Shown here: positions 1 to 664 of the stretch, piece by piece
How positions within the stretch are numbered: the stretch's first letter is position 1
Layout of the letters: the number at the start of each line of letters is the position of its first letter
Assembly: GCF_003334255.1 (NCBI RefSeq)
Contig: NZ_QOWU01000200.1
DNA: 664 bases
Source: Escherichia coli
GTDB lineage: Bacteria > Pseudomonadota > Gammaproteobacteria > Enterobacterales > Enterobacteriaceae
Strand: one strand, 5' to 3'
The notes under the pieces: generated by a model
Told to the model about the DNA's origin: nothing
Seen by the model: only the letters and a program-made list of their open reading frames with translations
Databases searched by the model: none
Made by a program: the position numbers and the translations under genes

Positions 1-664
1 GGGTGGTGAAGGGCGTGCGCTTCAGTCTGCGCCTGACCAGTGGAAGCGGTGAGAACAGCCGCCTGCTGACCACCGCCATCACCGCAGACACGGAGCACCG
101 TTTCAGTGGCCTGCCTCTCGGGGAATACACCCTGACGGTCAGGGCGATTAACAGCTATGGCCAGCAGGGCGAACCCGCCACCACCACGTTCCGGATTAAT
201 GCGCCTGCAGCACCGGCCACCATTGAGCTGACGCCGGGGTATTTTCAGATAACGGCGGTACCGCGTCTTGCGGTGTATGACCCGACGGTGCAGTTTGAGT
301 TCTGGTTTTCGGAGGCAAAAATTGCAGACGCCGCACAGGTGGAAACCTCTGCCCGTTATCTGGGGACCGGCAGTCAGTGGAGTGTCTCCGGTCCGCACAT
401 TAAGCCCGGAAAGGATTTCTGGTTTTATGTGCGCAGCGTCAACCTGGTGGGTAAATCTGCTTTTGTGGAAGCCAGTGGACGGGCGAGCAATGATGCTGCG
501 GGCTATCTGGAACTTTTCCGGGAAAAGATAGGAAAAACGCATCTGGCAGAGGCGCTGTGGGCAGAGATTGACAACAGTCAGCTGAAGGACGAGATGGCGG
601 AAATGCAGACCACCATCACAGAAACCCGCAATGAAATCACGCAGACGGTCAGTAAAACGCTGGA
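1..664 (+). CDS. J: Internal fragment (partial at both ends) of a lambdoid phage tail tip / host specificity protein J (central tail fibre). Codon phase: first complete codon at nt 3, last complete codon ends at nt 662.
   Basis: Seen in sequence: the frame starting at nt 3 has no stop in 220 codons, while frame +1 stops at nt 7-9 (TGA) and frame +2 at nt 50-52 (TGA); the minus strand has no ORF in the supplied track. Leu codons are 14/17 CTG, typical of expressed enterobacterial genes. From memory of phage lambda J (not searched): the translation closely matches its FN3-containing central region, e.g. '[38 protein letters not shown]', '[23 protein letters not shown]'. The FN3 signature [YF]-x-[LF]-x-V-R-[AS]-[IV]-N-x-x-G occurs twice, about 99 residues apart. 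Confidence 0.85.

Follow-up and report, generated by a model that had tools for sequence, protein, structure and literature searches.

The J protein is the host-range determinant of lambdoid phages. In phage lambda, three copies of its two FNIII domains make up a closed cone which ends the tail tube, and a three-helix bundle situated below this cone enforces its closure (PMC10721106). The alpha-helical shaft (AHS) of lambda gpJ is formed by residues 809-861 (PMC11101478). When LamB is bound, the shaft is partly converted into beta strands, the FNIII strings part and the tube opens (PMC11101478). Such a trimeric closure of the tube together with its receptor-triggered opening is known for lambda only (PMC11101478). 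In phage T5, the protein pb3 carries two consecutive FNIII domains after its hub domains, and these part when the tube opens (PMC10721106; PMC11101478).

The stretch of DNA analysed in our study (the window, 664 nt at its full length) is, with a probability of about 95%, an internal piece of the J gene of a lambda-like siphovirus (residues 645-864 of the protein), most probably carried by a chromosomal prophage of E. coli or of a very close relative. This reading is built on what was observed of the identity of the segment, its domain content, its position in the protein, the selection acting on its plus frame and the genomic context of its near-identical relatives. The features of the window are as follows.

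3..662, + strand: partial coding sequence of J with neither start nor stop codon in the window; its codons are residues 645-864 of the 1157-aa protein (exact substring, profile matches, codon bias).
6..206, + strand: FNIII-1, C-terminal two thirds (PF24421 Ig_J, aa 2-68, model positions 38-104 of 104, E 2.7e-23).
210..518, + strand: FNIII-2, complete (PF24489 Ig_J_second, aa 70-172, model positions 2-104 of 105, E 1.4e-39).
495..659, + strand: alpha-helical shaft (AHS), joining FNIII-2 to the central fibre (predicted helices, alignment to lambda).
641, + strand: G for A, the sole difference from the three closest prophages (L002-L004), synonymous (ACG versus ACA, Thr).
1..662, - strand: antisense open frame, not a gene, a by-product of codon usage.

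The 220 residues encoded by the window are an exact substring (residues 645-864) of the 1157-aa J protein in prophage L002. The NCBIfam model NF049904 (lambda_TipJ) matches aa 2-220 with its positions 646-864 of 1163 at an E value of 1.5e-105; the score of 353.8 bits is obtained from 220 of ~1160 residues, and the curated cut-off of 1950 bits presupposes a full-length J. PHROGs 10903, 2148 (tail fiber protein) and 31 (central tail fiber J) match with E values from 4e-129 to 2.5e-66, the last of these spanning positions 900-1101 of 1565 (E 2.5e-66). Among solved structures, the best match (E 4e-74) is to residues 647-838 of the tip attachment protein J of lambda, as in 8iyk and related entries. 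The protein search proposed along with the original prediction has returned J-like central tail fibre families (PHROG 31, lambda_TipJ), and the prediction itself, that the window encodes the central region of a lambdoid host specificity protein J, is borne out by the agreement of lambda_TipJ, the PHROGs, the Pfam Ig domains, the solved gpJ structures and the predicted fold.

The domain content is that of the J family: Pfam, AlphaFold2 and Foldseek together show a pair of adjacent J-specific FNIII/Ig domains with a helical shaft behind them. An AlphaFold2 monomer model was calculated on an alignment of 13 sequences and reached a mean pLDDT of 82.7; it consists of two FN3-type beta-sandwiches, with strands up to aa 160, and of helices thereafter. 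When compared with the PDB by Foldseek, the model retrieved chains of lambda gpJ as its first matches (E 1e-23 to 1e-14) and generic tandem FN3 pairs next. In the FNIII-1 segment, beta strands are modelled at aa 6-65 and the alignment to lambda gpJ starts from residue 647; positions 1-37 of the PF24421 model are unmatched and would fall upstream of the window. FNIII-2 is the best-predicted part (pLDDT ~90, strands at aa 73-160), and the residues invariant among 13 homologues cluster in it, e.g. F100, W101, S103, Y142, R144, N147, G150 and F154-E156. The helices of the shaft are modelled at aa 165-177, 180-191 and 194-219 with a pLDDT of 54-76 as a monomer, and residues 809-861 of the lambda AHS align to aa 163-215 of the window. 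From about aa 190 onwards the shaft is a non-lambda sequence variant.

The frame +3 of the window is free of stops over nt 3-662 (220 codons), and the frames +1, +2, -1 and -2 contain 8, 12, 7 and 11 stops, respectively. When the mononucleotides of the window were shuffled 20,000 times, just 37 of the shuffled sequences had any open frame. The GC content is 57.5% as measured (58/48/66% at codon positions 1/2/3), which agrees with the earlier estimate of about 58%. The CTG-dominated leucine usage noted earlier was also confirmed, CTG making up 14 of the 17 leucine codons in frame +3, with two CTT, one CTC and no CTA, TTA or TTG. For the analysis of selection, the window was compared with 23 homologous segments, giving 16 distinct alleles which are all gap-free. 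Codon position 3 of the plus frame holds 40 of the 60 variable sites and 68% of the changed codons are synonymous; the plus frame is under clean purifying selection.

A continuous plus-strand frame of 220 residues had been described for the window, and this frame is indeed open over nt 3-662. It is not the sole continuous frame, as the antisense frame -3, which lies in codon register with J, is also stop-free across the whole window. It is free of stops in all 16 alleles, and in L002-L004 it stays open over J codons 609-941 (332 codons). It could be asked on this basis whether the real gene lies on the minus strand and the antisense frame encodes a protein; the probability of this is negligible. 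The frame is open because the sense J here uses no TTA, CTA or TCA: these codons number 0 in the window and 10-13 in the full 1157-codon J of the closest relatives, and with ~13 such codons per 1157 an antisense gap of 220 codons is unremarkable. In lambda J (L013), the antisense stretch is open over codons 311-1017 (706 codons). Read in the antisense in-register frame, only 15% of the changed codons are synonymous as against 68% in the sense frame, and the antisense translation was matched by neither PHROG nor NCBIfam families at E<=1. This translation is rich in arginine, as would be expected from antisense read-through. The antisense gene was dropped on its 15% synonymous share, its origin in codon usage and the lack of a family match.

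Another candidate, an ORF of 87 aa in frame +1 (nt 268-531), was rejected as well: PHROG and NCBIfam gave nothing for it at E<=1, and only 8% of the changed codons are synonymous in its frame. No Rfam match at E<=1 was obtained for a structured RNA in the window. The DNA repeats in the window are limited to two short two-copy repeats at chance level, with no inverted repeats. Promoter-like sites number 0 and terminator-like sites 2, against 0.8 +/- 1.0 expected, and nothing among these is meaningful inside a coding region.

The relatives of the window were searched in GenBank phages, 5426 complete E. coli genomes, IMG/VR, metagenome contigs and GTDB species representatives. A sequence identical over all 664 nt was found in none of these collections, and the GTDB species representatives gave 0 matches. 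The best complete E. coli genomes are identical at 663 of 664 positions (99.85%; L002-L004), seven genomes in all fall at 99.7-99.8%, three of which (L002-L004) were inspected, and the best GenBank phage reaches a DNA identity of 95.9%. IMG/VR was searched with a 59-mer and the metagenome contigs with a 150-mer, both carrying G641; this variant was carried by 8 contigs of IMG/VR and by 15 of the metagenome set, but no contig of either group is identical to the full window. One metagenome contig (L027) is identical over nt 431-664 and ends there. Matches are found in 2079 of the 5426 complete E. coli genomes (~38%), with up to 11 places in a single genome and a median of 2. The closest DNA belongs to E. 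coli chromosomal prophages and 6558 of the 6576 matching places are on chromosomes, which upholds the placing of the window in a lambdoid prophage of an enterobacterial chromosome. Matching phage records number 488. Among the 30 phage records listed, the annotation, where present, is J, tail fibre, host specificity or other tail protein with two exceptions, an outer membrane protein alpha precursor and a 'TMhelix containing protein'.

The neighbourhood of these relatives is that of a siphovirus tail module. In L002-L004, the window lies inside a J gene of 3474 nt (1157 aa), and the gene order is tape measure, M-like, L, C40 peptidase (K), I, J, Ail/Lom, side tail fibre and a DUF4376 protein. 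The tail-module order around J is present in L001-L004 by annotation and in the metagenome contig L018 by PHROG matches (M-L-K-I-J-stf-tfa); L027 shows the downstream side-fibre genes only. The inspection of the flanks suggested at the outset was carried out on these relatives, and the expected arrangement was found in the 99.85% prophages, with M-L-K-I upstream, lom-stf downstream and a J of 1157 codons. This context also bears on whether the window could stem from a non-phage element with phage-tail-like parts, be it a satellite that carries a J homologue, a gene transfer agent or a tailocin of the lambda type. Gene transfer agents too have J-like hub and fibre proteins (PMC10721106), and the window itself excludes none of these sources. 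The near-identical copies, however, are all situated in complete lambdoid/HK97-like modules (capsid, portal and head-tail genes) or in isolated phages, and such an origin is very improbable.

Some further observations were made on the loci carrying this J. The same J is present in two prophage backbones at different chromosomal sites, L002/L003 on the one side and L004 on the other. One J-bearing backbone has an HK97-like head and a tape measure gene of 3243 nt and adjoins ompW/yciE-trpA; the other, which adjoins yecD-aspS, has a head like that of lambda and a tape measure gene of 2574 nt. The L and K proteins of L002 and L004 are identical, and the point of exchange between the backbones (L002/L003 versus L004) is apparently situated between L and the M-like gene. 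The right arm past the tail fibre genes (L002 19076-25229; L003 19012-25012) contains a gene for an adhesin with a YadA C-terminal domain, apparently as cargo. Apparent cargo is also seen in the same arm in the form of a 4008-nt gene of an S6 family peptidase, which we take to be probably a serine protease autotransporter. In phage PhiR12_2 (L001), two minus-strand genes annotated as 'Transposase / Integrase' and 'ATP-binding transposition helper protein' are placed between the tail-fibre ORFs (12541-14822), and this pair looks like an IS21-type insertion in the side-fibre region.

The J frame was extended in all fetched loci, and 20 relatives could be assessed at both ends. A full-length open J was found in 18 of the 20, with frames of 1167-1215 codons and including all three relatives at 99.85%; trimmed to the conserved N-terminal start motif, J measures 1156-1176 aa in six relatives. 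The two remaining relatives, PhiR12_2 and the metagenome contig L020, carry a broken J. In PhiR12_2 (PV340550.1, locus 9665-10700), a one-base gap makes the frame stop 271 nt past the window, and J past the window is 98.3% identical to the type ending in '...YTDDFDTAS'. It is due to this single gap that J is annotated there as a protein of 954 aa, followed by a gap of 173 nt and a separate 163-aa 'tail fiber protein'. Either the frame is truly shifted in this plaque-forming phage, or the gap stems from an error in sequencing. In L020 (OGGU01003443.1, ~6450-7098), approximately the first 320 codons of J are missing, and the remainder continues in frame from an unrelated N-terminal sequence (MQAVILAAGMGKRLG...); this is a genuine leftover of J, the product of a rearrangement or a chimera made in assembly. 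An AT-rich ORF of 143 aa adjoins the truncated J in this contig.

These cases are relevant to the possibility that the window lies in a decayed J of a cryptic prophage, truncated or frameshifted outside the window and giving no functional tail tip. Defective prophages are common, the portal gene of the L003 prophage is frameshifted, and two of 20 relatives are interrupted, by the frameshift 271 nt after the window in one and by the 5' truncation in the other. Against this, a full-length open J is kept in 18 of 20 relatives, including the three at 99.85%, the window is under clean purifying selection and its sole private change is synonymous; such decay is considered rather improbable. As 18 of the 20 assessable relatives are intact, a full-length J is likely to be present in the source genome, judging from its relatives. 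An intact J does not imply a live phage, as the L003 prophage has a frameshifted portal. The caveat made earlier, that the window alone cannot tell an intact gene from a cryptic one, stands, and two relatives carry a broken J.

The centre of J represented by the window is joined to at least three C-termini, namely '...KKATAGITIS' (1157 aa), '...YTDDFDTAS' (1176 aa) and '...ASASGFVES' (1176 aa). The first two types part at approximately J residue 880, i.e. 15-20 codons past the window. In the metagenome contigs, the G641 variant is mostly linked to the '...YTDDFDTAS' C-terminus (~1176 aa). In contigs of this type (L018 6571-6756; L027 3026-3211), stf follows J directly with no lom, and in the '...KKATAGITIS' prophages lom is placed between J and stf. 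The differences among the alleles occur in linked patches (nt 83-89, 200-227, 257-275 and 476-485) which are combined differently among alleles, and this reassortment points to short-patch recombination between copies of J. Reassorted patches of this kind are an expected result when lambdoid prophages residing in the same host recombine. The non-lambda shaft variant is nearly unchanged across J proteins having at least three unrelated receptor-binding C-termini. It can tentatively be speculated, at somewhat less than even odds, that this variant serves as a conserved joint for the swapping of receptor-binding modules between co-resident prophages and that the patches reflect the same ongoing gene conversion. 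If true, this would refine the known lambdoid mosaicism and would not constitute a new kind of system.

With regard to function, the segment in the window would be expected, by analogy, to play the same opening role as in lambda. The three-helix shaft would clamp the FNIII domains and tie them to the beta-prism fibre and the C-terminal receptor-binding domain. Once the receptor is bound, a signal would pass up the fibre; the shaft would then partly refold, the FNIII strings would separate, and the tube would open and the DNA be ejected. The transfer of this role is well grounded for the FNIII domains because they are 55-85% identical to lambda over J 641-800. A helix-to-strand switch in the last ~30 residues, where the identity to lambda is ~10%, may be proposed from predicted secondary structure only. 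A search of the literature for the PhiR phages, or for the receptor of this J type, was without usable result.

The window is an ordinary fragment of a very common and well-understood gene and is already known, its 220 residues being present in identical form in annotated RefSeq proteins. Its value is mainly one of annotation, as it flags the tail module of a lambdoid prophage within an E. coli-like genome. As the part of J which decides the receptor is downstream of the window, the window says nothing about host range. It opens no new question and a specialist would not be surprised by it.

In comparison to the known systems, the window is nearest to the gpJ of E. coli prophages in the strains DETEC-S792, S1-KEN-03-A and 99RCEF (WP_271290539.1, WP_338691810.1 and WP_220411592.1), which are proteins of 1157 aa containing the same 220 residues and differ from the window by the one synonymous base at nt 641. 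The best GenBank phage records, at 95-96% DNA identity to the window, are long-tailed Stx1a-converting phages and the ECOR-derived phages PhiR12_2, PhiR12_5 and PhiR5_1. For the Stx-converting phage Stx1_120412 and the phages PhiR12_2 and PhiR5_1 the range is 94.6-95.9%, and their J differs from the window in clustered patches at nt 83-89, 200-227 and 257-275. At the protein level, J of Stx1_120412 and BP-4795 has 91-97% identity to the window, BP-4795 being matched at this level only. The Stx-converting, PhiR and BP-4795 J proteins have the same non-lambda shaft variant as the window.

Lambda gpJ (NP_040600.1; PDB 8iyk, 8k35, 8xcg/8xci and 9e7m) has the same order of FNIII-1, FNIII-2 and shaft at residues 647-861, an FNIII-2 strongly conserved with that of the window and the same gene neighbourhood of M-L-K-I-J-lom-stf. 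The two are ~55% identical as proteins and 69% identical as DNA over 562 aligned bases. The J type of the window shares 40% of its residues with lambda gpJ over J 801-840, and this falls to 10% over J 841-880. The C-terminus of lambda gpJ is the LamB-binding domain, whereas the receptor-binding C-termini of the window's relatives differ from it, and so the receptor of this J type need not be LamB. T5 pb3, which is likened to J by published description, also has two FNIII domains after the hub. On the other hand, T5 splits the functions among pb3, pb4 and pb5, and no helix bundle keeps its FNIII domains closed (PMC10721106).
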